Shown: one piece after another, positions 29,278 through 41,385 of the stretch
How positions within the stretch are numbered: the first letter of the stretch is position 1
Layout: every line of letters begins with the position of its first letter
Assembly (NCBI GenBank): GCA_964482135.1
Contig: CAYZWF010000001.1
Coordinates: forward strand, 11,362 to 75,361
Reading direction: 5' to 3'
Source of the DNA: an uncultured Rhodospirillaceae bacterium
GTDB taxonomy: Bacteria > Pseudomonadota > Alphaproteobacteria > UBA11136
Length of the DNA: 64,000 nt
The notes under the pieces: model-generated
Seen by the model: only the letters and a program-made list of their open reading frames with translations
What the model was told of the DNA's origin: nothing
The model's database searches: none
Position numbers and translations under genes: made by a program

Positions 29278-29654
29278 GGGCCAGGAACCCCCAGGCGAGA
29301 AAATAACGTGGACGACCCCACCATCGCCCCAACCTCGTAAAAACTGAAAATTTTCCTCTCGGGCCTGTTGAAGGACCGGTTTGTGACCGGCATGGACGGG
29401 TAAATGATCCCGCAAGGTATGGCAAAGCCCCTTTAAACCACTGCATAAAAATATACAATACATTGATTTACAATGGTTTTTTATGGCTGCGATGAATAAA
29501 TCACTTTCTTGTCCCGGAAGGTTACGCAAGGCTTTGCGATTCCCATCATTCTCCGCTAATTTGTGCGGCCCGCGCGCGAGACCCGATGCCCCGGAATACC
29601 CATATAAGTACAAGCATTGATGGCTTGCGCGCGAGGTGCGGCTGAGCTTTTTTG

Positions 29655-29720
29655 AGGCCCAATGTACCCTGGACCTTTTTGAGGCCCGACGTATTTTATG
29701 GCGCCGACGTACCCTGGCGC
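29655..29720. repeat. Three REP-like elements (GAGGCCCAATGTACCCTGGACC, GAGGCCCGACGTATTTT, GGCGCCGACGTACCCTGGCGC), each after a T-run
   Basis: Same family as the 9853-10253 elements. They lie inside the annotated 5' end of the gltB ORF, which argues the real start is downstream. Confidence 0.7.
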
Positions 29721-29783
29721 ATCCTGGGCCTTTTTTCGGGAAGGCTGGGAAGGCATGAAACCATAACGGACGGCATTAAGATT

Positions 29784-32700
29784 TTGACCAAGAAGATCCA
29801 TTCGACCTTGCCACCCCCACAGGGGCTTTACGATCCGCGGAACGAGCATGATTCCTGCGGCATCGGTTTCGTGGCCAATATCAAGAACGTGAAAAGCCAC
29901 GAAATCATCCGTCAGGGTCTGACCATCCTCGAGAATCTCACCCATCGCGGCGCTGTGGGGGCCGACCCCAAGGCCGGTGACGGAGCGGGAATCCTGATTC
30001 AGATGCCCGACGCCTTTCTGCGCGCCGAAGTCGCCGGGTTTGAATTGCCGCCGCAGGGCGAATACGGCGTGGCCATGCTGTTTCTGCCGCCCCACGACCC
30101 CGACGCGCGGGAGAAATGCGAATCCCTGTTGGAACAGTTCACCGTTTCCGAAGGACAAAAAGTTCTGGGCTGGCGCGACGTGCCGGTGGACAACAGCGAT
30201 ATCGGAGAAAGTGTCAGGGCCAGCGAACCCATTATCCGTCAGCTCTTCGTGTGGCAGGGCGAGTCCTGCCCCGACCAGGATGGGTTTGAGCGCAAGCTCT
30301 TCGTCATCCGTAAACAGGTGGAAAACGCGGCAGCCGAACTGGTGGGCCAGATGGAAGGCATGGAAGACTTCTATATCCCCTCTTTCTCGTCGCGGACCCT
30401 GCTGTTCAAGGGCATGGTGCTGTCCCATCAGGTGCGGAATTTCTACACGGACCTTACAGACGAGCGCATGGTTTCGGCCCTGGCCCTGGTGCATCAGCGT
30501 TTTTCCACCAACACGTTCCCCACCTGGAGCCTGGCCCAGCCGTTCCGGATTCTCTGCCACAACGGCGAGATCAATACCCTGCGCGGCAACCTCAACTGGA
30601 TGAACGCACGCCGCCGCTCCATGGTTTCCGAGATTCTGGGCGACGATCTCGACAAGATCTGGCCCCTCATCGCCGAGGGCCAGTCGGATTCGGCCTGTAT
30701 CGACAACGCCCTGGAGCTTCTCGTGGCGGGGGGCTATTCCCTGTCTCACGCCATGATGCTGTTGATTCCCGAAGCCTGGTCCGGCAATCCCCTGATGGAT
30801 GAGGCGCGGCGGGCTTTTTACGAATATTACGCGGGAATCATGGAGCCCTGGGACGGTCCCGCCGCCATTGCCTTTACCGACGGACGGCAGATCGGCGCCA
30901 CCCTCGACCGTAACGGCCTGCGGCCCGCGCGCTATTACGTTACCGATGATGATCTGGTGATGCTGGCCTCGGAAATGGGTGTGCTCACGGTCCCGGAAGA
31001 AAAAATCGTCAAGAAATGGCGCCTGCAGCCGGGCAAGATGTTCCTCATCGACCTTGAGGAAGGCCGCATTATCGACGACGGGGAGGTAAAGGCCGGTCTG
31101 GTGGCGGCCAAGCCCTATCAGAACTGGCTCGACGCCACCCAGTTCCGTCTCGAGGATCTCAAGGACGGTGACGAGGAACCCCTAGTCCGCGATCCCGGCA
31201 CCGACACCCTTCTCGATCGCCAGCAGGCCTTCGGCTACACCCAGGAGGATATTGAATTCTTTCTCAAGCCCATGGCCCTGGCGGGACAGGAACCCACGGG
31301 CTCCATGGGCAGCGATACTCCGCTTTCGGTGCTCTCGTCAAAGCCAAAGCTCCTCTACACCTATTTCAAACAGTGCTTCGCCCAGGTCACCAACCCGGCC
31401 ATCGATCCCATCCGCGAGGAACTGGTGATGTCGCTGGCCTCCTTCATCGGCCCCCGGCCCAACCTGCTGGGCTTAAGAGAAGACGGCGGGCATATGCGGC
31501 TCGAGGTGCGCCAGCCCATTCTCACCAACGACGACACCGAGAAACTCCGCCATATCGAGCTCAGAACCGACGGCCATTTCCGTTCCCTCACCCTGGATAT
31601 CTGCACTCTGGCCGATAAGGGAGTGGCGGGGATGGAGGCGGGCCTCGCGGAATTATGCGAGAAGGCGCAGGAAGCCGTGGAGGGCGGCGTCAACGTGCTG
31701 ATTCTGTCCGATCGCGGCATGGACGAGGCCCATGTGGCCCTGCCGGCGCTGTTGGCGGTTTCCGCGGTTCATCATCACCTCATCGGCACCGGGCTGCGGA
31801 CCCGCACCGGGCTGGTGATCAAAACCGGCGAAGCCCGTGAACTGCATCACTTGGCGGTTCTGGCGGGGTACGGCGCCGAGGCCATCAGCCCCTATCTCGC
31901 CTTCGAGACCCTGTCTTCGATCCATGCCGGTCTCGAGCAGGAAGGCGATAGCGACCTCTCCGAGGACGACGTGCATCAGCATTTCATCAAGGCCGCCAAC
32001 AAGGCGATCCTGAAAATCATGTCGAAGATGGGTATTTCCACGTACCAGTCCTATTGCGGGGCGCAGATTTTCGACGCCGTGGGGCTGTGCGGTGAATTCG
32101 TCGCCGCCTATTTCACGGGAACCGCCACCACCGTGGAAGGGGCGGGCCTGACCGAGGTGGCCGAAGAGGCGCTGCAACGGCACCGCCAGGCCTATGGCGA
32201 TGCCCATATCTATCGTGATTCCCTGGACGTGGGCGGTGAATACGCCTTCCGTCTGCGTGGCGAGGATCACATATGGTCGCCCGAAACCATCGCCAATCTT
32301 CAGCATGCGGTGCGCGGCGACCTGCCCGACAAATATCACCAGTTCGCCACCCAGATAAACCAACAGAGCGAGCGCATGATGACTCTGCGCGGGCTTATGA
32401 AGCTGGGTTCGGCGGGCAAATCCGTGCCCTTGGACGAGGTGGAGCCCGTCACCGAGATTGTCAAACGCTTCGCCACCGGGGCCATGTCCTTCGGCTCCAT
32501 TTCCCGGGAGGCCCATACCACCCTGGCCATCGCCATGAACCGTATCGGCGGCAAGTCCAATACCGGCGAGGGCGGCGAGGAGCCGGAACGCTTCACGCCG
32601 ATGGAAAACGGCGATTCCATGCGCTCGGCCATCAAACAGGTGGCCTCGGGCCGTTTCGGCGTTACCACCGAATATCTGGTCAATTCCGACGATATCCAGA

Positions 32701-34472
32701 TCAAGGTCTGTCAGGGAGCCAAGCCCGGCGAAGGCGGCCAGCTTCCCGGTCACAAGGTGGATGCCACCATCGCCAAGGTGCGTCATTCCACCCCCGGCGT
32801 CGGCCTTATTTCGCCGCCGCCCCATCATGACATCTATTCCATCGAGGATCTGGCGCAGCTCATTTTCGATCTTAAGAACGTCAACCGCGACGCCCGCATC
32901 AGCGTCAAGCTGGTTTCCGAGGTGGGCGTGGGTACGGTGGCGGCGGGCGTGGCCAAGGCCCGCGCCGATCACGTCACCATCGCCGGATTCGACGGCGGCA
33001 CCGGCGCCTCGCCCCTGACCTCCATCAAGAATGCGGGCTCTCCGTGGGAAATTGGGCTTGCCGAAACCCATCAGACTCTGGTGCTCAACAGGCTGCGTGG
33101 CCGCATCTCGGTCCAGGTGGATGGCGGTCTGCGCACCGGGCGCGACGTGGTGATCGGCGCCATGCTGGGGGCCGACGAATTCGGCTTCGCCACCGCGCCC
33201 TTGATCGCGGCGGGCTGTATCATGATGCGTAAATGCCATCTCAATACCTGTCCGGTGGGGGTGGCCACCCAGAACCCGGAACTGCGCAAGCGCTTCACCG
33301 GCGAGCCCGAGCATGTGATCAATTATTTCTTCTTCGTGGCGCAAGAAGTGCGTGAACTGATGGCGGAGATGGGTTTCCGCACCTTCAACGAGATGATCGG
33401 CCGCAGCGACCTTCTCGGCATGGAAGACGCCATCAACCACTGGAAGGCCAAGGGGCTGGATTATTCGCGCATTCTCTACAAGCCCGAAGCGGGACCGGAT
33501 GTGGCGGTCTATAATTGCGAAGAACAGACCCACGACATCCATGACATTCTCGACCGCAAGCTGATGAAGCAGGCGGCCGGAGCCCTGGAAAAGGGTGAGG
33601 CCGTCCGGATCGAGATGCCCATCGTCAACACCGACCGCACCTTCGGCGCCATGCTTTCGGGTGAAGTGGCCAAGCGCTATGGCCATGAGGGCCTGCCCGA
33701 GGACACCATCAGTATTCGCCTTTCCGGCACCGCGGGGCAGAGCTTCGGCGCCTTCCTCGCGCGCGGTGTCTCGGTGGAACTGGCCGGCGAGGCCAACGAC
33801 TATGTGGGCAAGGGACTTTCCGGCGGACGTCTGGTGATCTATCCGCCGCAGGAATCCCCCATCGTCGCCGAAGACAACATCATCGTCGGCAATACCGTGC
33901 TCTACGGGGCCATTTCCGGTGAATGCTATTTCCGCGGCGTGGCGGGGGAACGCTTCGCGGTGCGTAATTCAGGCGCGGTGGCCGTCATCGAGGGCGCGGG
34001 CGACCATTGCTGTGAATACATGACCGGCGGCATCGTCGTGGTGCTGGGCGGCACCGGCCGTAACTTCGCCGCCGGCATGAGCGGAGGCATCGCCTATGTG
34101 CTGGACGAGGATGGCGATTTCGAGCGCCGCTGTAATCTTTCCATGGTGGAACTGGAACCCATCACGCAGGAAGACGAGGCCCTGGAGCGCTTTGCCTATC
34201 AGGGCGGCGACCTTGAAACCCACGGCCTGGTGGATGTGATGCACGACCTGACCCGTTTCGATGCGGCGCGTCTGCATTATCTGGTCAAGAAACATCTGCA
34301 TTACACCAACAGTGCGCGCGCCCGCGCCATCCTCGATGGCTGGGATAATTTTCTGCCCAAATTCATCAAGGTCATGCCGGTGGATTACCGCCGTGCTTTG
34401 AAGGAAATGGAAGAGGCGCGGGCCGCCGATGGCGATGCCGGGTCCAAGGAGGGACAGCGCGCCCATGGGTAA
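29784..34472 (+). CDS. gltB: glutamate synthase (NADPH) large subunit
   Basis: Ntn-amidotransferase Cys in [14 protein letters not shown] and 3Fe-4S regions, and a C-terminal GXGXG beta-helix domain. The start is ambiguous. The ORF-track ATG at 29652 would put REP elements in the coding sequence, so the in-frame TTG at 29784 (propeptide of about 25 aa before the Cys) is proposed. The stop overlaps the gltD ATG. Confidence 0.8.
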
Positions 34473-35907
34473 GCCCACCGGTTTTCTTGAAATCGAACGT
34501 CAGGGATTGTCTTCCCTGCCGCCGGCCGAACGCATCTCCAATTACCAGGAGTTCACCCTTCCTCCGGAAGACGAAGCCCTTGCCGAACAGGCCGCGCGCT
34601 GCATGGATTGCGGCATTCCCTTCTGTCACCATGGCTGTCCGGTCAACAACATCATTCCCGACTGGAACGATCTTGTGTATCGGGGGGAATGGCGCCGCGC
34701 CCTGGAGGTGCTTCATTCCACCAATAATTTCCCCGAGTTCACGGGACGTATCTGCCCCGCGCCCTGTGAGGAATCCTGCACTCTCAACATCACCAGCCAG
34801 CCCGTGACCATCAAGAACGTAGAACGCAGCATCGCCGAGCATGGCTGGCGGGAAGGCTGGATCACGCCACAGCCGGCGCAGGATAAAACCGGAAAGACCG
34901 TCGCCGTGGTGGGCTCCGGCCCGGCGGGCCTGGCTTGCGCCCAGCAGCTCGCCCGTACCGGCCACGAGGTGACGGTGTTCGAGAAGAACGGTAATCCTGG
35001 CGGCCTCCTGCGCTATGGCATTCCTGACTTCAAGCTGGAAAAGCATATTGTGGAACGCCGCGTCGATCAGATGCGCGACGAGGGCGTCACCTTTCGCAAT
35101 AACTGTCATGTGGGGGTAGATGTGGCGGCGGCCGAGCTGATGGCGGATTTCGATGCCGTGGTGCTGGCCGGCGGCGCGGAGAAGCCGCGCGATCTGAAGG
35201 TTCCGGGCCGCGATCTGAGGGGTGTTCATTTCGCCATGCCCTTCCTTAGCCAGCAGAATCTCCGTAACGAGGGCAAGACCATTGATCAGGCGCAAGCCAT
35301 CAGCGCCGAGGGCAAGCATGTGGTAGTGATCGGTGGCGGCGACACCGGCTCCGACTGTATTGGTACTTCCAATCGCCAGGGGGCGCTCTCGGTGACGCAG
35401 CTTGAAATTCTCGAGCGTCCCCCGGAGATGGAAGATAAGGCGCTGACCTGGCCCAACTGGCCGTTGAAACTGCGCACTTCCTCTTCCCAGGAGGAAGGCT
35501 GCGAGAGGGACTGGAGTATCGCCACCAAGCGTTTCGAGGGGGAAGACGGTCGCGTTACCGGGATGGAAATTGCCCGCCTGGAATGGGAAACGGATAAGGA
35601 CGGGCGCATGACCATGAAAGAGGTGGAAGGCAGCAAAACCAGGCTCAAGGCCGATCTGGTTCTGCTCGCCATGGGATTCCTGAATCCCGTGGCCGAGGGG
35701 CTGTTGGATGATCTTGGTGTGGGGCTGGACGGTCGCGGCAACGTGGCCGCCGATACGGACAGCTACCGTACTTACCTCGACAAGGTTTTCACCGCCGGCG
35801 ACATGCGGCGCGGGCAATCGCTGGTGGTCTGGGCCATCCGCGAGGGCCGCCAATGCGCACGCTCGGTGGACGAATACCTGATGGGGCGCTCCGACCTGCC
35901 GCGCTAG
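34465..35907 (+). CDS. gltD: glutamate synthase small subunit
   Basis: [13 protein letters not shown]-terminus, two 4Fe-4S Cys clusters, and FAD/NADPH Rossmann motifs ([27 protein letters not shown]). Confidence 0.9.
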
Positions 35908-35986
35908 AAATTCCTGGCTCGCCGTAATCCCGCCGTACTAGAGTATTGATGACTTTCCCGTTTCAGTATTCCCCGCAAGGGAACGT

Positions 35987-37273
35987 ATGAGCCAGGCTTC
36001 TCCCCTTCGCCGCCACCAATCACCTGCTTCTCCGTCCCCGGGCGCGGCGTCCCCAAATCTGCGGGACTCATTCCTGCGGGAGGTGGCCGCGTGGCGGGTT
36101 TTTGGCGGTAAAACCCGGGAGTCCCGTCTCGGCCAGGTTCCCGTTTTCAGTAACGAGTTCTGGACTTCGCGCCAGCGTCACGCCGCCGCCCTTCACGAAG
36201 TTTCCTACCGCGCCTGTTTCAAGCCCCAGCTTCCGGCTTTTTTCATGGAACGCCTGAGCACGTCCGGGGATGTGGTCTACGACCCCTTCATGGGGCGCGG
36301 CACCACGGTGATCGAGGCCATGTTACGGGGGCGGGTCCCCATGGGGTGTGACGTCAATCCCCTGTGCCGCCTGTTGGCGGAACCGAGATTACGCCCGCCT
36401 CATGTGGCGCAGGTGGAAGAGCGGCTTGACGAGCTTGATCTGGACCGGGCGGTGGAGGTGGAGGACAACCTGCGCGTCTTTTATCATCCCGACACCCTGC
36501 GCCAGATTGCCAATCTTCGCGGCTATCTCCTGGGGCGCGAAGACCGGGGGGAGTTGGATGACGTGGATGGCTGGATTCGCATGGTGGCCACCAACCGGCT
36601 CACCGGCCATTCGGGCGGGTTTTTCTCGGTTTACACCATGCCGCCCAACCAGGCCGTTTCACTGGCGTCCCAGCGCAAGATCAACGCAAGAAGGGAGCAG
36701 AGCCCGGAATTTCGCCCGCTCAAACCGCTGATTCTCAAGAAGACCCGATCTCTGTTGCGTGGCCTTGAGATTCCAGAAGATGCAAAAGCCTGCCGGGAAC
36801 AGGCGGCGCTGTTCACTGGATCGGCTCAGGCGACGCCGGGAATTGCCGATGGCTCGGTGGCGCTGATCGTCACTTCGCCGCCTTTTCTCGACACCGTGGA
36901 CTACGGCAAGGACAATTGGCTGCGTTGCTGGTTCAACGGTATCGATGCCGCCGGGCTGGAAATCGCCGCCTTCCGGTCATTACAGGCATGGACGATGTTC
37001 ATGAAGTCGGCTTTCGCGGAATTTTCCAGAGTCCTCGCCCCCGGTGGATTCATGGCCTTCGAAGTGGGGGAAGTGCGGCGCGGCAAGGTGCGCCTGGAGG
37101 AGGCAGTCCTCGAAGCGGCGGCGGCTCTTCCCGCATCTCGCCGGCTCGACCCGGTCTGTGTCCTCATCAACGCCCAGGACTTTACCAAGACCTCCAATTG
37201 CTGGGGTGTTCACAACAATACGGGCGGCACCAACTCCAACCGTATCGTGGTCTTCGAGAAGCCAAGCCTTTAG
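35987..37273 (+). CDS. putative SAM-dependent DNA methyltransferase (N6-adenine/N4-cytosine type), orphan
   Basis: Motif I DVVYDPFMGRGTT (FxGxG) at about aa 95 and motif IV LIVTSPPFLD (SPPF) at about aa 290 give an alpha-like motif order. No restriction endonuclease gene lies adjacent. Confidence 0.6.
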   Translation: MSQASPLRRHQSPASPSPGAASPNLRDSFLREVAAWRVFGGKTRESRLGQVPVFSNEFWTSRQRHAAALHEVSYRACFKPQLPAFFMERLSTSGDVVYDPFMGRGTTVIEAMLRGRVPMGCDVNPLCRLLAEPRLRPPHVAQVEERLDELDLDRAVEVEDNLRVFYHPDTLRQIANLRGYLLGREDRGELDDVDGWIRMVATNRLTGHSGGFFSVYTMPPNQAVSLASQRKINARREQSPEFRPLKPLILKKTRSLLRGLEIPEDAKACREQAALFTGSAQATPGIADGSVALIVTSPPFLDTVDYGKDNWLRCWFNGIDAAGLEIAAFRSLQAWTMFMKSAFAEFSRVLAPGGFMAFEVGEVRRGKVRLEEAVLEAAAALPASRRLDPVCVLINAQDFTKTSNCWGVHNNTGGTNSNRIVVFEKPSL

Positions 37274-38208
37274 GCTGGGGGGCTGGCCCGATCTTGCGGT
37301 GATCCGTGCCCGCGCGCCCAACGGGATGCCAGGAAAGCGCCGCTGAGGTTGTGCCAGACGCTGAACAGGGCGCCGGGGAGCGCGGCCGCGGCTCCGAAAT
37401 ACTGGGTGGCAAGCGCCACCGCGAGGCCCGAGTTCTGCATCCCCACCTCGATGGCCATGGTGCGCCGGATACGCCGGTCCTGGATCAACAGCGCCGTCAG
37501 CCCATAGCCCGCACCCAGTCCCAGCAGGTTGTGCAACATCACCGCCGCCACCAGAGGCAGCGCCACACCCGCCAGCATTCCCGCGTTGGCGCCGACAATG
37601 ATGGCAATGATGACGACGATGGCGGCCACCGAAAGCAACGGGAAGACGGCCTTGATGCGGTCCAGCCGTTCGCCGCAAAAATGGTTGACCACCCCACCGA
37701 GAACCACCGGGACGATGATAATCTTGAGCACGCTCATCATCATGGCCACCACCGGCACCGGCACTTCGCGGCCGATATAGGCCCAACCCAGGAGCGGCGT
37801 GGCGAAGACGGCCAACAGGGTGGAGACGGCGGTAAGGGTGATGGATAGCGCCACGTCGCCGCGGGCGAGGTAACAGATCACATTGGACGCCGTGCCACCG
37901 GGGCAGCTTCCCACCAGAATGATGCCCGCGGCAAGCATGGCCGGAAGCCCCAGAATCTGGGCCAGAATCCAGCCCATAAGCGGCATCAAGAGGAATTGCA
38001 GTCCGACGCCAAGGGCCACCGTTTTCGGGGTTTTCAGGACGCGGGCGAAATCCCCCGCCGTCAGCCCCAGCCCCATGCCGAACATGACCACGCTGAGCAG
38101 GGGCACGATGGCCGGCTTTAGCGACGCCCATGAATCGGGCTGGACATAGGCCCAGAGCGAGAACAACACGGCCCATAGGGGAAAGAGGGAGGTCAGGCGG
38201 GAAATCAT
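37270..38208 (-). CDS. bile acid:sodium symporter (BASS) family transporter
   Basis: About 10-TM protein with the LFPLWAVLFSLWAY...GMGLGLTAGDF pattern of the BASS family. Confidence 0.7.
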   Translation of the reverse strand: MISRLTSLFPLWAVLFSLWAYVQPDSWASLKPAIVPLLSVVMFGMGLGLTAGDFARVLKTPKTVALGVGLQFLLMPLMGWILAQILGLPAMLAAGIILVGSCPGGTASNVICYLARGDVALSITLTAVSTLLAVFATPLLGWAYIGREVPVPVVAMMMSVLKIIIVPVVLGGVVNHFCGERLDRIKAVFPLLSVAAIVVIIAIIVGANAGMLAGVALPLVAAVMLHNLLGLGAGYGLTALLIQDRRIRRTMAIEVGMQNSGLAVALATQYFGAAAALPGALFSVWHNLSGAFLASRWARGHGSPQDRASPPA

Positions 38209-38354
38209 TGGGGAAGCAGATGGTCCATGACGCGTGGGGAATTAAAGTCAATTTTAGCTAAAGTTTTGAGCAACTTAGTCATATTTATTATTATTTTATT
38301 TACAAAACAGCCCGCATAATAAGTAGCGTATTTTCATATTAGCGGGTTTTTATC

Positions 38355-38966
38355 GTGGAGATTCTATACCCAGACGCCAAGAATAAATTTTCCCGTTTCA
38401 GGGAAGATTTGCAGCACATCGTCAATCAGCCGGGTGTCGAGGAGATGCGCCCTTGCCCCGGATGCGTAGAGCCCTGTGCCTGCTCCGGTTCCATCAGTTG
38501 TTCCTGTGGATGTTCCGCGGAATGCGACTCGGCGCCCCGGGTCATGTCCTCGGAGCCGGAGAATTTCCTTATTGAATCAGGCATCGTTCCGCTGGTCTAT
38601 GAGTTCTATTGCCTGCGCTCCTGCCATCCCTGCTGGTCTTGTGAAGGGCATAATGATTCCGACGGCAATATCTACCGCCTTCCCCAGGTCTGGTTTTTTA
38701 CCAGCTCGGTTATTTATCCCCGCCTCATCGACGAACATATCCACGCCCTGCACCACAAGGGAAAGCTGGGAACACCCTGGCATGTTTGCCTGACTTACGC
38801 GCCGAGCGAGAGCCCCTATTCGGCATTCGCACTCAAACCGGATCTGGCCATGAGCGTCAGACCACCGCTGGAAAGCCTCCAGAGGGATACCATGGCTATC
38901 GCCCATGGATTTTCAGACAGCATCCACGCCAAGGCGGAGGAATATCTTGCGGGAAGCCATTCTTGA
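38355..38966 (+). CDS. hypothetical Cys-rich protein
   Basis: 203 aa. It carries an N-proximal cluster PCPGCVEPCACSGSISCSCGCSAEC and further Cys/His motifs (CLRSCHPCWSCEGH). It is preceded by a strongly AT-rich promoter-like region at 38225-38350. Confidence 0.45.
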   Translation: MEILYPDAKNKFSRFREDLQHIVNQPGVEEMRPCPGCVEPCACSGSISCSCGCSAECDSAPRVMSSEPENFLIESGIVPLVYEFYCLRSCHPCWSCEGHNDSDGNIYRLPQVWFFTSSVIYPRLIDEHIHALHHKGKLGTPWHVCLTYAPSESPYSAFALKPDLAMSVRPPLESLQRDTMAIAHGFSDSIHAKAEEYLAGSHS

Positions 38967-39111
38967 AAAATCTGGCGCCGAAAGAGTGCGGGCGTTTGCT
39001 CCATTTTTTCTGGTGGAGGGGTTGATAGGGAGCCCTACGGACCCTTGCCCTTTGGCGCTGTTCGCATGAGCCAGCATAATGTGTCGGTGGTCCGTGAACC
39101 GGCGGAGAAAA

Positions 39112-39876
39112 ATGAATCATCCCCAGATTAAACAACAAGTGATTGATGCCCTGCTGCGCAATCCTGAGAAACCCGTCACGGGAGAAATAAAAGGGTGCCG
39201 TTTTGCGGCGCATATCGGTATCCCCAATTATTCCGAGAAGGTTCTCGCCCACTATCCCGAAGCCGCCTCACTGGGCCTCAGCGAAATCTGCCGCCGCACG
39301 GAGGTGCCGTATTTCCATTTCCAGCATTTCGGCCTTTTCTGTGTTTTCGAAAGCCCCGCTAAACTTCACTTATACGACGAGGAAAGAACACTCGAAGAAG
39401 ACGTGCGGGAAATGGTCCATAGTTTTGGGCCGGTTATCTTCCAGAATGCCTATCTTGACGCGGTGGGCGGCAAGGAGGACCAGCGGAATATCTTTTCGCA
39501 TCTGAATTTTCATTTTGACCGGGGATCAAACCAGCCCACCCAGTATTCCCTGTTCTCGCGGTCGCCCACCGATCCCGTCCAAAGCGCGCCGCGAAAATCC
39601 TCCACTTTATATATTTCCAACGTGGTGGCGCATCTGCAGTTTTGCCGGGAACATGGCCTCTCGCCTGAAAAAGAGCCGGGAAGGCCGCGCTATGACATTT
39701 TTCATAATGAAAAGATGAAAAAGATGATTGGGCAGGTGGCTCTGGAACATGCCTGGGACGCGCCGAAAAACACGGGCGAAGTAGCCATCATCCACAACCG
39801 CCCCCTCCTGCATGCCAGTTATTATCGGAAAAAGGGTGTGCGCGGCTATCCCATCGGCGTGCGTTATCTGAAGTAA
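39112..39876 (+). CDS. hypothetical protein, possibly an Fe(II)/2-oxoglutarate oxygenase-like fold (tentative)
   Basis: Co-oriented 146 nt downstream of the Cys-rich ORF. It contains NFHFDRG (H-x-D) and a distal IIHNRPLLHA...R motif, with spacing resembling the PhyH/TauD facial triad plus Arg. Confidence 0.35.
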   Translation: MNHPQIKQQVIDALLRNPEKPVTGEIKGCRFAAHIGIPNYSEKVLAHYPEAASLGLSEICRRTEVPYFHFQHFGLFCVFESPAKLHLYDEERTLEEDVREMVHSFGPVIFQNAYLDAVGGKEDQRNIFSHLNFHFDRGSNQPTQYSLFSRSPTDPVQSAPRKSSTLYISNVVAHLQFCREHGLSPEKEPGRPRYDIFHNEKMKKMIGQVALEHAWDAPKNTGEVAIIHNRPLLHASYYRKKGVRGYPIGVRYLK

Positions 39877-39893
39877 ACCGGAAAAATACTTGG

Positions 39894-40655
39894 TTAGGTT
39901 TTTTCGCGCATTTCCTTGGCGGTGACGCCTCCGGTGGTGCCGTCGGCGTAGGATGCGTAGCGGACGATAAAATAGTCGCGGGGGCGGGAGGTCGTCTTCA
40001 CTGATTCCCGGTCCCTCAGCGCGGTGATCCACGCGCAGAGGCGGGCGTATTGGGAGGGAATGACCACGTCACGGTAATGTTCCAGCGCCACGAAACGCTC
40101 AAAAAAAGGCGCATAACTGGCATCCACCAGGGAAAAGTTCTTTCCCATCCAGTAGGGGCCGGAACCAGGGGCGCCGGACAGCGCCTCCGTCTCAATGAAG
40201 CGGAGATGGTCCAGCATAAGGTTCCGGTATTCGTTTTGTTTGTCCGTATCTTGTTCCAGCAGCAGTTTGTAGAAAGTGACGGTGAAGCGGTTGTCGCAGA
40301 AGTCGATCCAGATTCGCGCCCTGGCGCGGTCTGCCGGGTCGCCCGGCATCAATGGCGGCTCGGGAAACACCTCGTCGAGATATTCGTTGATGATGGCGCT
40401 TTCATAGATGCATGTTTCACCGTGCCGCAGCACCGGCACCTTGCTATAGGGTGAAATCCGGAGGAACCAGTCAGGCTTGTTCTTGAGGTCAATTTCACTG
40501 AGGGTAAAATCCACCTCTTTTTCCAACAGCACGATACGGCTGCGCTGGGCAAAGGGGCAGACATCGGCGCTGATGATTTCCACCTCCGACTGGCTCCGGT
40601 CCGTGCCGGAATGGGTTTCGGGGGTGTCTTTATTCCGCTTCTTGCCGTCGGTCAT
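39894..40655 (-). CDS. glutathione S-transferase family protein (thioredoxin-like N-domain with CPFAQR active site)
   Basis: ISADVCPFAQRSRIVL...VPVLRHGETCIYESAIINEYLDE is an omega/glutaredoxin-like GST N-terminal domain. There is an alpha-helical C-domain. Confidence 0.65.
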   Translation of the reverse strand: MTDGKKRNKDTPETHSGTDRSQSEVEIISADVCPFAQRSRIVLLEKEVDFTLSEIDLKNKPDWFLRISPYSKVPVLRHGETCIYESAIINEYLDEVFPEPPLMPGDPADRARARIWIDFCDNRFTVTFYKLLLEQDTDKQNEYRNLMLDHLRFIETEALSGAPGSGPYWMGKNFSLVDASYAPFFERFVALEHYRDVVIPSQYARLCAWITALRDRESVKTTSRPRDYFIVRYASYADGTTGGVTAKEMREKT

Positions 40656-40740
40656 GGCGCACTACTCTCTTTAATTCCAGCCACGTGTTAGCATATATAC
40701 AGCTATCAAACATGATCCGGCAGAGGGGAAAGGCAAGATT

Positions 40741-41385
40741 ATGACGGAAAAAGAGCGCTTGATCGTGGGCATCAGCGGCGCGTCGGGTGTGGTTTACGGC
40801 ATCCGGCTGCTGGAGTTGTTGCGCGATTTGCCGGTGGAAACCCATCTTGTGATGACCCGCCCGGCCGAACTGGTTCTTGCCACCGAAAGCGATCTGGCGC
40901 CAAAGGACGTGCGCGACCTGGCCGATGTCGTCCACCCCATCGGCAATATGGGCGCGGTGATTTCAAGCGGATCATTCCGCACCAGGGGCATGGTGGTGGC
41001 TCCCTGTTCCATGAAGTCGTTGGCGGAAATCGCCACCGGCATGGGCTCGACCCTGTTGGCTCGCGCCGCCGATGTGACTCTGAAAGAACGCCGGAGGCTG
41101 GTGCTCATGGTGCGCGAAACCCCGCTGCATAGCGGCCATCTGCGCAACATGCTCAATGTGTCTGATATGGGTGCGGTAATTGCCCCGCCGGTGCCGGCGT
41201 TCTACGCGAAGCCGGAATCCCTGGACCAGATGGTGGACCACACGCTGGGCCGTACCCTCGACCTGTTTGGCCTGGAAAGCGGTACCGTGCGGAGATGGGG
41301 AGAAGAGGGGCCTGAAACGGGCCCCGATTTGGATCGGAATGCTGAGGCAGAGCCGGTTAGGCTGGGAAAAAAAACCGGCCTTTGA
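40741..41385 (+). CDS. ubiX: flavin prenyltransferase UbiX (Pad1 family)
   Basis: LIVGISGASGVVYGIRLLE...MVVAPCSMKSLAEIATG...LVLMVRETPLH, the canonical UbiX flavoprotein motifs. Confidence 0.85.
   Translation: MTEKERLIVGISGASGVVYGIRLLELLRDLPVETHLVMTRPAELVLATESDLAPKDVRDLADVVHPIGNMGAVISSGSFRTRGMVVAPCSMKSLAEIATGMGSTLLARAADVTLKERRRLVLMVRETPLHSGHLRNMLNVSDMGAVIAPPVPAFYAKPESLDQMVDHTLGRTLDLFGLESGTVRRWGEEGPETGPDLDRNAEAEPVRLGKKTGL

Follow-up and report, generated by a model that had tools for sequence, protein, structure and literature searches.

A solitary alpha-class DNA methyltransferase of a Type II restriction-modification family beside gltBD, with GTAC as its probable target

The methyltransferase gene and its surroundings

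We analyze a DNA methyltransferase (MTase) gene and its neighbors in a 64-kb window from an uncultured alphaproteobacterium; by the window we mean the whole stretch of DNA under study. The MTase gene occupies positions 35987 to 37273 of the forward strand, starts with ATG, and encodes 428 aa. Directly upstream on the same strand lies gltD (34465–35907; assigned by Pfam), preceded by gltB (29652–34472). The 79-nt spacer between gltD and the MTase (35908–35986, forward strand) carries a Shine-Dalgarno-like AAGGGA element 7–12 nt ahead of the ATG, as well as one GTAC (35935–35938). A scan of this spacer for promoters and terminators found neither kind of site; the MTase is presumably co-transcribed with gltBD. 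On the other side, a BASS/SBF transporter gene (37270–38208, reverse strand; PF01758, E 2.7e-42) is convergent with the MTase gene and overlaps its stop codon. The open reading frames and Pfam matches thus bear out the placement between gltBD and a BASS transporter that an earlier reading of the letters (hereafter, the sequence-only reading) had proposed.

The two flanks differ in their conservation. The transporter gene sits in a variable block that is missing from a relative at 88% identity (L097), where a GST gene directly follows the MTase. The adjacency of gltD and the MTase, which the sequence-only reading had suggested checking, is kept at 93% and 88% identity among the relatives, and likely at 80% (synteny in L001–L004 and L095–L097). 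The base composition of the MTase gene equals that of its flanks, its surroundings hold neither a specificity subunit nor a mobile-element gene, and its unannotated neighbors gave no match to the PADLOC defence models.

The protein contains the elements expected of a DNA amino-methyltransferase, and the proposed pairing of DPFMGRGTT with an SPPF motif about 200 residues on proved accurate, the separation from TSPPF being 198 residues. Motif I, the SAM-binding loop DPFMGRGTT (aa 99–107; 36281–36307, forward strand), follows strand beta-1 (aa 96–99), and D99, P100, F101, G103, R104, G105, and T106 are invariant in the family alignment. Motif IV, the catalytic TSPPF (aa 296–300; 36872–36886, forward strand), follows strand beta-4 (aa 291–296); residues T296 to D302 are invariant, and TSPPF is kept in 24 of 24 aligned members. 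Between the two motifs, and flanked by strands beta-2 and beta-3, lies an all-helical insertion (aa 125–271; 36359–36799, forward strand) that is presumably the target-recognition domain (TRD). It holds the invariant segment WIRMVATNRLTGHSxGFFSVYTxPPNQA, and its loop 209–223 is invariant yet modelled with low confidence. A similar combination is seen near the C-terminus, where the invariant loop FTKTSNCWGVxNxxxGTNxNR (37181–37243, forward strand; flanked by strands beta-6 and beta-7; F399–T402, C405–G407, N410, G414–N416, N418, and R419 invariant) has low pLDDT over residues 400–415 despite its invariance; this loop probably contacts DNA or forms part of the pocket for the target base.

Ahead of motif I stands a family-invariant N-terminal block, NEFWTSRQR...YRACFKPQLPAFF (36152–36244, forward strand), with invariant columns N56–T60, Q63, R64, and Y74–P80 (alignment A1). 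It corresponds to the motif X region, which precedes motif I in PF01555 enzymes, matches positions 142–213 of the PF01555 profile, and aligns with the C-terminal part of beta-class MTases in the PDB. The block also bears on annotation. Other annotators called the MTase ORF shorter, at 396 and 342 aa, and both calls would drop the stretch NEFWT...YRACFKP. Because the shorter calls delete an invariant motif, we favor the full 428 aa, or else initiation around codon 28–33; users of the public 342- and 396-aa gene calls should be aware that the N-terminal motif is lost in them.

Class, fold, and partner endonuclease

The MTase is a DNA amino-methyltransferase with the alpha-class order of motifs (motif X/I, TRD, IV); the Type II restriction-modification (R-M) family to which it belongs is large and tightly conserved. 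Pfam PF01555 (N6_N4_Mtase) scores 55.6 bits against a gathering cut-off of 26.7, in two swapped stretches, and all homologues among the matches listed carry the same domain. The PADLOC Type II model MTase_II PDLC03325, which is REBASE-derived and paired with the endonuclease model PDLC03550, matches at E 7.3e-162 (aa 28–426 against profile positions 22–424 of 426). With both profiles scoring this strongly, the motifs are no chance matches. The sequence and profile matches in the PDB are likewise DNA amino-MTases (TTHA0409, the N4-cytosine MTase 8s9n, M.MboIIA, M.PvuII, CcrM, and M.RsrI); in each case aa 57–136 of the MTase align with the C-terminal half of the matched protein and aa 273–369 with its N-terminal half. 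These profiles support the sequence-only reading in its designation of an orphan N6/N4-type DNA MTase.

The AlphaFold model (pLDDT 82.6, pTM 0.86) shows a Rossmann-type MTase fold in which the helical insert separates beta-2 and beta-3. As in class alpha (Topology D), the TRD divides beta-2 and helix B from beta-3 within a seven-stranded Rossmann-like fold, and the order runs from motif I through the TRD to motif IV, the motifs being over 150 aa apart. The earlier remark that the order is unlike that of beta-class CcrM therefore holds: motif I, an insert of about 200 aa, and motif IV is the alpha-class arrangement, and the CcrM equivalog model NF050803 reaches 18.6 bits, far below its cut-off of 830, and covers the motif I region alone.

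Across the family, we find a recurrent partner. In 11 of 80 loci from species-representative genomes, a conserved ORF of about 157 aa adjoins the MTase; the other 69, like the window, are without it. Over its full length this ORF matches the PADLOC model REase_II PDLC03550 (E about 1e-46), and it is a PD-(D/E)xK Type II restriction endonuclease, cognate to the MTase family. It is full-length and directly upstream in seven loci, where its end overlaps the MTase start or lies within about 13 nt of it, downstream and convergent in one, and truncated in three. A mean column identity of 70–73% makes the endonuclease family as conserved as the MTase; strong conservation thus characterizes the R-M system in its entirety. 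Apart from the endonuclease, no MTase neighbor recurs in 72 loci, and plasmid-borne MTase relatives at 25–40% identity have no informative neighbors. The Mb-scale contigs with MTase homologues are all long-read MAGs, none of them from a cultured strain.

About 86% of the family genomes have the MTase alone, as do seven further contexts. Endonuclease-linked and solitary MTases are interspersed (mean identities in this comparison were 0.615, 0.612, and 0.615), and one endonuclease-linked member (L036) is 97% identical to a solitary one (L034). Since the two kinds of MTase intermingle at identities this high, we conclude that the endonuclease was lost repeatedly.

Target base, solitary status, and retention

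The sequence-only reading named neither a target nor a choice between N4-cytosine and N6-adenine. Motif IV of the MTase has the N4-cytosine form S-P-P-Y/F, which is a correlate of base specificity and no proof of it; S/DPPY/F has been described as the N4C hallmark (PMC6712171). Its TSPPF aligns with TSPPY in both TTHA0409 and the N4-cytosine MTase 8s9n. The partner endonuclease points to a particular site. The endonuclease family is homologous to gene 153 of cyanophage Syn19, annotated "R.RsaI endonuclease" (tblastn E 3e-6; hhalign against Syn19 gp153, probability 98%, E 1.7e-13), although this label is the depositor's annotation and the phage protein is 28–34% identical to the endonuclease family. 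The product of M.RsaI is GTA(m4C), and the cloned M.RsaI insert of about 1.23 kb corresponds to about 410 aa, a size matched by the family MTase.

Genome composition is consistent with the same site. GTAC has an O/E of 0.68 in the endonuclease-linked loci (rank 1 of 16) and a per-locus median of 0.54 in family-bearing loci. By group, the values are 0.42 in Verrucomicrobiota (rank 1), 0.55 in Planctomycetota, 0.54 in the relatives of the window, and 0.75 in the window, compared to 0.81–0.90 in three control replicons, which were drawn from other phyla. Depletion is weak in Acidobacteriota (0.85), and in the window alone it is not significant (66 GTAC sites versus 81 ± 8.7 in shuffles). GCGC has an O/E of 1.00–1.07 in family-bearing loci; the depleted palindrome is GTAC, not GCGC or CCGG. 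In addition, orphan GTA(m4C) MTases are on record for Desulfobacca and Holophaga, whose phyla carry the MTase family; GTAC m4C is widely reported in Desulfobacterota, again a phylum with the family. A protein search for relatives of a Desulfobacca MAG protein returned no Desulfobacca acetoxidans orthologue among the close relatives. Candidates for a family member in that species are Desac_0610 (GTAC) and Desac_2401 (CTAG).

Taken together, these indirect observations favor N4-cytosine as the methylated base and, less firmly, GTAC as the target, which is probably methylated to GTA(m4C). The main competitor keeps the same orphan DNA MTase and gives it another target or base, for example a different short palindrome such as GCGC, CTAG, or CCGG as m4C, or N6-adenine. 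We think this on the unlikely side. GCGC m4C is reported in all Planctomycetota of one survey, CTAG m4C orphans exist, the Latescibacterota loci that carry the family are undepleted in GTAC (O/E 1.01), and in Akkermansia, which has a family member, the orphan motif conserved universally is RAATTY m6A. Set against this are the homology of the partner endonuclease to a gene annotated R.RsaI, the depletion of GTAC and not of GCGC or CCGG, the fit of the MTase to M.RsaI in size, and the invariant serine of motif IV, which speaks against m6A.

A second question is whether the MTase is in fact an orphan. A tblastn search of the whole 64-kb window with the cognate endonuclease gave a best E of 9.8 and no homologue, in keeping with the earlier statement that no restriction endonuclease, specificity subunit, or mobile-element gene lies nearby. 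Nor was a homologue found in the contigs related to the window, four of which have none beside the MTase. Because the cognate endonuclease is absent from the window and from the related contigs, we consider the MTase a solitary family member; the discovery of a linked endonuclease, which the sequence-only reading had named as grounds for rejecting orphan status, did not occur in this genome fragment. The sequence seen comprises the window and contigs of up to 224 kb, which leaves room for a complete R-M system in which the MTase is the M subunit and an endonuclease, of the same or another family, is encoded in another part of the genome. We judge this very unlikely: where the cognate endonuclease occurs, it is always immediately adjacent to the MTase, whereas here the MTase abuts gltD across the 79-nt spacer, with no remnant in the four related contigs, and the 69 species loci and seven further contexts described above are solitary as well.

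The MTase does resemble Trm11 in structure, which could suggest a relative of Trm11, TrmN, or UPF0020 that modifies amino groups in tRNA or rRNA (m2G or m4C). The resemblance arises because the motif order is shared; sequential structure aligners prefer the same I-to-IV order and therefore penalize the permuted beta-class DNA MTases, which are the closest relatives by sequence. RNA-MTase profiles remain below their cut-offs (PF01170, 17 versus 22.3 bits; TIGR01177, 24 versus 316 bits), the protein has no THUMP or other RNA-binding domain, and nothing distinguishes the solitary members from those that, in 11 of 80 genomes, accompany a PD-(D/E)xK Type II endonuclease. An activity on RNA is accordingly most improbable, and the profiles show neither an RNA nor a protein MTase, either of which would have told against the sequence-only reading.

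The gene also appears to be maintained. Of the 142 residues invariant in endonuclease-linked MTases, the window MTase keeps 139, including all SAM-binding and catalytic motifs. Against its relatives dN/dS is 0.12–0.17 (about 0.15), without indels; dS relative to L097 is similar for gltD (0.43) and the MTase (0.48), and four lineages, reaching a dS of 0.84, share an unbroken frame of exactly 428 aa. The retained residues, the stable position beside gltD, and the low dN/dS, which shows purifying selection, indicate that the MTase is functional and vertically inherited, and a gene that is not decaying has likely retained its function. A decaying, non-functional R-M relic (an incipient pseudogene) is hardly credible given the intact frame, the dN/dS, and the conserved residues, even though the endonuclease is gone and, in other lineages, truncated copies of it attest to decay of the system. 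Of the two possibilities raised by the sequence-only reading (regulatory enzyme or R-M remnant), an origin in R-M is shown by the pairing of the family with an endonuclease, and decay is contradicted by a dN/dS of about 0.15.

Interpretation and comparison with known systems

Our preferred reading, to which we assign a probability of roughly 85%, is that the gene encodes a functional orphan alpha-class MTase of a Type II R-M family that has lost its endonuclease and makes m4C, most probably at GTAC. The enzyme, presumably transcribed together with gltBD, would flip its target base into the S-P-P-F pocket and methylate the exocyclic N4 of cytosine; the methylated base would most probably be the final C in each strand of the palindrome GTAC, as in RsaI-type systems. 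The MTase may have been retained because it shields the genome from incoming RsaI-type restriction systems or because it serves an epigenetic role.

A further-reaching proposal, which we put forward as speculation with rather long odds, is that an RsaI-type m4C MTase without its endonuclease was domesticated independently in many phyla and became a conserved factor with epigenetic or housekeeping duties, much like Dam or CcrM except that it writes m4C. The groups involved would be Verrucomicrobiota, Planctomycetota, Acidobacteriota, Latescibacterota, and the marine alphaproteobacterial clade of the window. If so, the MTase would be among the most widespread m4C orphan regulators, and in the window lineage its possible expression from the gltBD operon would couple genome-wide GTAC methylation to nitrogen-assimilation status.

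Taken alone, the MTase is an ordinary orphan methylase, a well-preserved case of a common kind and no new system. The family is of broader use as a clean natural series for the origin of orphan MTases, running from an intact endonuclease through truncated remnants to an MTase alone under purifying selection; the steps of this series sometimes span just 3–12% MTase sequence divergence. Should GTA(m4C) be correct, it makes a testable methylome prediction for many uncultured lineages, marine Alphaproteobacteria, Verrucomicrobiota, Planctomycetota, and Acidobacteriota among them, in which m4C orphans are poorly understood.

Among known solitary enzymes, CcrM is likewise an orphan PF01555-type MTase that is chromosomal and vertically inherited in an alphaproteobacterium. 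However, CcrM is a beta-class enzyme (GANTC, m6A) with the order IV, TRD, I and a DPPY motif, whereas the window MTase has the reverse order, SPPF, and another target; its family is also patchy across many phyla, with the endonuclease still present in some members. Dam, DpnM, and M.CbeI (class alpha, Topology D; PF02086) share motif I, a TRD separating beta-2/alpha-B from beta-3, and motif IV. Class alpha enzymes are reported to be monomers, and Dam-type enzymes are often orphans. By sequence, the MTase belongs to PF01555 and not PF02086, its TRD of about 150 aa is about twice the 60–80 aa of these enzymes, and it has SPPF in place of DPPY.

M.DraR1 of Deinococcus radiodurans, an alpha-class N4-cytosine MTase acting on C(m4C)GCGG, resembles the MTase in its N-terminal FxGxG, central TRD, and C-terminal SPPY/F about 190–200 residues on, as well as in N4-cytosine chemistry; its loss alters genome stability and expression (PMC6712171). 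Its recognition sequence differs and it is plasmid-borne. We rejected M.DraR1 as a close relative, as the architecture is shared but the tblastn matches on plasmids include none from Deinococcus. Two other candidates were set aside: M.Ssp6803II (GG(m4C)C), a PF02086 enzyme, is ruled out as family prototype, and the Akkermansia RAATTY orphan M.AmuORF1905P could not be matched to the family member of that genus, with the motif IV serine arguing against m6A. A literature search found no mention of Amuc_1904 to Amuc_1906.

A probable close counterpart is the Type II system M.RsaI/R.RsaI of Rhodobacter blasticus 28/5, which recognizes GTAC and yields GTA(m4C). Common to both are an N4-cytosine-type motif IV, an alphaproteobacterial host, a small partner endonuclease (in the family), an MTase of about 410–430 aa (the M.RsaI size being inferred from plasmid size), and depletion of GTAC, which is reported for the RsaI host and seen in family-bearing genomes. 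The window differs in the absence of the endonuclease. On this indirect evidence, membership of the MTase family in an RsaI-type system is probable. M.Dac11109II (Desulfobacca acetoxidans) and M.Hfo6591I (Holophaga foetida), described by Blow et al. 2016, are likewise solitary Type II m4C enzymes, and they are the likely functional equivalents of the window MTase.

The methyltransferase gene and its class

The solitary DNA amino-methyltransferase (MTase) is encoded at 35987-37273 on the + strand (ATG start, 428 aa), and its translation contains motif I, DPFMGRGTT, at nt 36281-36307 (aa 99-107) and motif IV, TSPPF, at nt 36872-36886 (aa 296-300), with 198 residues separating the two. gltB and gltD lie 5' on the same strand, with gltD ending at 35907 and leaving a 79-nt spacer; 3', a convergent SBF/BASS transporter gene (37270-38208, - strand) overlaps the MTase stop codon. 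Reading frame, motifs and flanks are exactly as the sequence-only reading had them. As the G+C content of the MTase gene (0.60-0.64) equals that of gltBD, composition gives no hint of recent acquisition. UbiX proteins with 90% or higher identity to the one encoded in the window, Tara Oceans records among them, are labelled as uncultured alphaproteobacterial, which identifies the host as such. Published gene calls at this position include shorter products of 396 aa (JGI) and 342 aa (NCBI/ENA, from Met87), the latter dropping the family-invariant NEFWT...YRACFKP block.

Pfam PF01555 (N6_N4_Mtase) matches the protein in two pieces of swapped order (55.6 bits; threshold, 26.7). In PDB sequence and profile searches, beta-class DNA amino-MTases align in the same swapped way: their motif X/I (C-terminal) half falls on aa 57-136 and their motif IV (N-terminal) half on aa 273-369; the PDB matches are TTHA0409, two N4-cytosine MTases, M.MboIIA, M.PvuII, CcrM and M.RsrI. 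The REBASE-derived PADLOC Type II MTase model covers residues 28-426 (E = 7e-162). A confident AlphaFold model built from 24 aligned sequences (pLDDT 82.6, pTM 0.86) predicts a Rossmann-type MTase sheet in which aa 125-271, all helical, form an insert between beta-2 and beta-3. On this predicted structure, the arrangement of motif I, target-recognition domain and motif IV is the alpha-class order. Its counterpart in a recent MTase classification is "Topology D", whose members are often picked up as two separate beta-type profile hits. The earlier remark that the motif order differs from that of CcrM, a beta-class enzyme, was thus right, and the protein reaches 18.6 bits with the CcrM equivalog model (cut-off, 830). 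The proposed orphan N6/N4-type enzyme can be sharpened to a solitary alpha-class DNA MTase.

A widespread family and its endonuclease partner

More than 8000 MTase homologues are in the protein database, and the family occurs in at least 595 species-representative genomes, among them Verrucomicrobiota (including Akkermansia), Latescibacterota, Acidobacteriota, Planctomycetota, Chloroflexota and one archaeon. Among the matches listed, the closest relatives are three at 93, 88 and 80% identity and one at 67%, the rest being 55-62% identical to the window protein. The family is unusually conserved (mean column identity 63%), with long invariant runs in the insert and C-terminal loop and an identity floor of ~0.61 that is the same within Verrucomicrobiota as between phyla. 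Phages are nearly free of it, as are plasmids (three records, ~40% identity).

When neighbouring ORFs were clustered over 72 MTase loci, each resulting family was confined to 8 loci or fewer, and most neighbours were housekeeping genes (a UvrA paralogue, CNNM, a T2SS ATPase, pantothenate kinase and RNase D, among others). The sole tight neighbour is a ~157-aa PD-(D/E)xK endonuclease, which by tblastn adjoins the MTase, whole or partial, in 11 of 80 loci. Seven have it full-length directly 5', its end overlapping the MTase start or lying at most ~13 nt away; one has it full-length 3' and convergent; and in three Latescibacterota loci truncated or frameshifted remnants precede an intact MTase (L022, 5666-5932; L038, 5602-5850; L054, 5478-5879). 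These remnants capture the endonuclease in the course of decay; in L022, KWNVRS stands in place of the conserved KWEVRS.

MTases with and without the endonuclease are interspersed: mean identity is 0.615 in the linked set, 0.615 in the solitary set and 0.612 between them, and the linked MTase of L036 is 97% and 95% identical to the solitary ones of L034 and L069, and 88% to that of L022. The family has therefore dropped its endonuclease on many occasions but retained the MTase.

Separately, a solitary MTase is directly followed by a ~1000-aa UvrA paralogue, an ABC ATPase that has the DNA-binding and interaction domains of UvrA, in six Verrucomicrobiota loci (~7140-10140 in L023, L026, L059, L064, L082 and L088) and in a 10.5-Mb long-read MAG (L103, 5246-8257). 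The paralogue's neighbour cluster covers 7 loci in total; this may reflect lineage synteny or a DNA repair link.

Target base and site

Motif IV reads TSPPF in every aligned family member, and its serine form is a recognised hallmark of N4-cytosine MTases (PMC6712171); the enzyme is probably of this type. The endonuclease family matches gene 153 of the T4-like Synechococcus phage Syn19 (2357-2872 of L105; 171 aa), annotated "R.RsaI endonuclease" (tblastn E = 3e-6; hhalign probability 98%, E = 1.7e-13). Directly 3' of gene 153, and overlapping it, is a gene for a dam-type adenine methylase, not for an N4-cytosine MTase. The RsaI site is GTAC, and M.RsaI produces GTA(m4C). Plasmid pRRS-M.RsaI exceeds pRRS-Dam by 394 bp, a difference that suggests an M.RsaI gene of ~1.23 kb (~410 aa), the same size as the MTase family.

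Observed/expected GTAC ratios (maximal-order Markov expectation) were 0.68 in endonuclease-linked loci, where GTAC is the most depleted of 16 four-base palindromes, and 0.72 in 69 solitary loci, behind CTAG only. They were 0.42 in pooled Verrucomicrobiota (rank 1), 0.54 in the window's relatives, 0.55 in Planctomycetota, 0.85 in Acidobacteriota, 1.01 in Latescibacterota and 0.81-0.90 in three control replicons. The window's own ratio, 0.75, is not a significant depletion by itself. One GTAC lies in the gltD-MTase spacer (35935-35938), 49 nt 5' of the MTase start codon; the next 5.3 kb (35939-41251), MTase gene included, has none where the window average predicts ~5, which could be chance. The Acetobacter persici plasmid pAC1084_1 (300000-349999) encodes a ~40%-identical relative and has a GTAC ratio of 0.48 (rank 1 of 16), a hint that this more distant branch shares the target.

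According to published methylomes, Desulfobacca and Holophaga have orphan GTA(m4C) MTases and GTAC m4C is widespread in Desulfobacterota; the phyla concerned carry the MTase family. Motif IV, the Syn19 homology, the size of M.RsaI, GTAC depletion and these methylomes together give GTA(m4C) more support than any other target, with a probability of roughly 60-65%; the MTase is probably GTAC-specific.

Inheritance and origin

The noted lack of a nearby restriction gene was borne out: the endonuclease has no trace in the window (best tblastn E = 9.8) or in related contigs, and the unannotated window neighbours gave zero PADLOC defence-model matches. gltD directly precedes the MTase in the 93% and 88% relatives too, and probably in the 80% one; the genes 3' differ among the three. 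The BASS transporter gene and two ORFs with no Pfam or PADLOC match, a Cys-rich one of 203 aa (CPGCVEPCACSGSISCSCGCSAEC; 38355-38966, +) and one of 265 aa (39079-39876, +), both in a lower-GC stretch (0.49-0.55), form a block present in the window and the 93% relative and missing from the 88% relative, where a GST gene directly follows the MTase.

Comparison of the MTase across four lineages gives dN/dS values of 0.12-0.17; dS reaches 0.84, and the genes are free of indels. For the window and L097, MTase dS (0.48) matches gltD dS (0.43), and the window MTase retains 139 of 142 columns invariant in eight endonuclease-linked MTases. Position, selection, matched divergence and retained columns point, at sequence level, to a vertically inherited orphan under selective maintenance that is probably fully active. 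A scan of the spacer found no promoter-like and no terminator-like site, and co-transcription with gltBD is possible.

Such orphans had been proposed to be either regulatory or remnants of restriction-modification systems. The family's pairing with an endonuclease shows the second to be the origin; the low dN/dS speaks against decay. The MTase descends from a restriction-modification system, probably of the RsaI type. An uncultured clade of alphaproteobacteria stably retains it behind gltBD, and it may act there as a shield against incoming RsaI-type systems or in epigenetic regulation. Orphan MTases arising by endonuclease loss are well known, and REBASE-derived models already cover this family; the kind of system is therefore not new.
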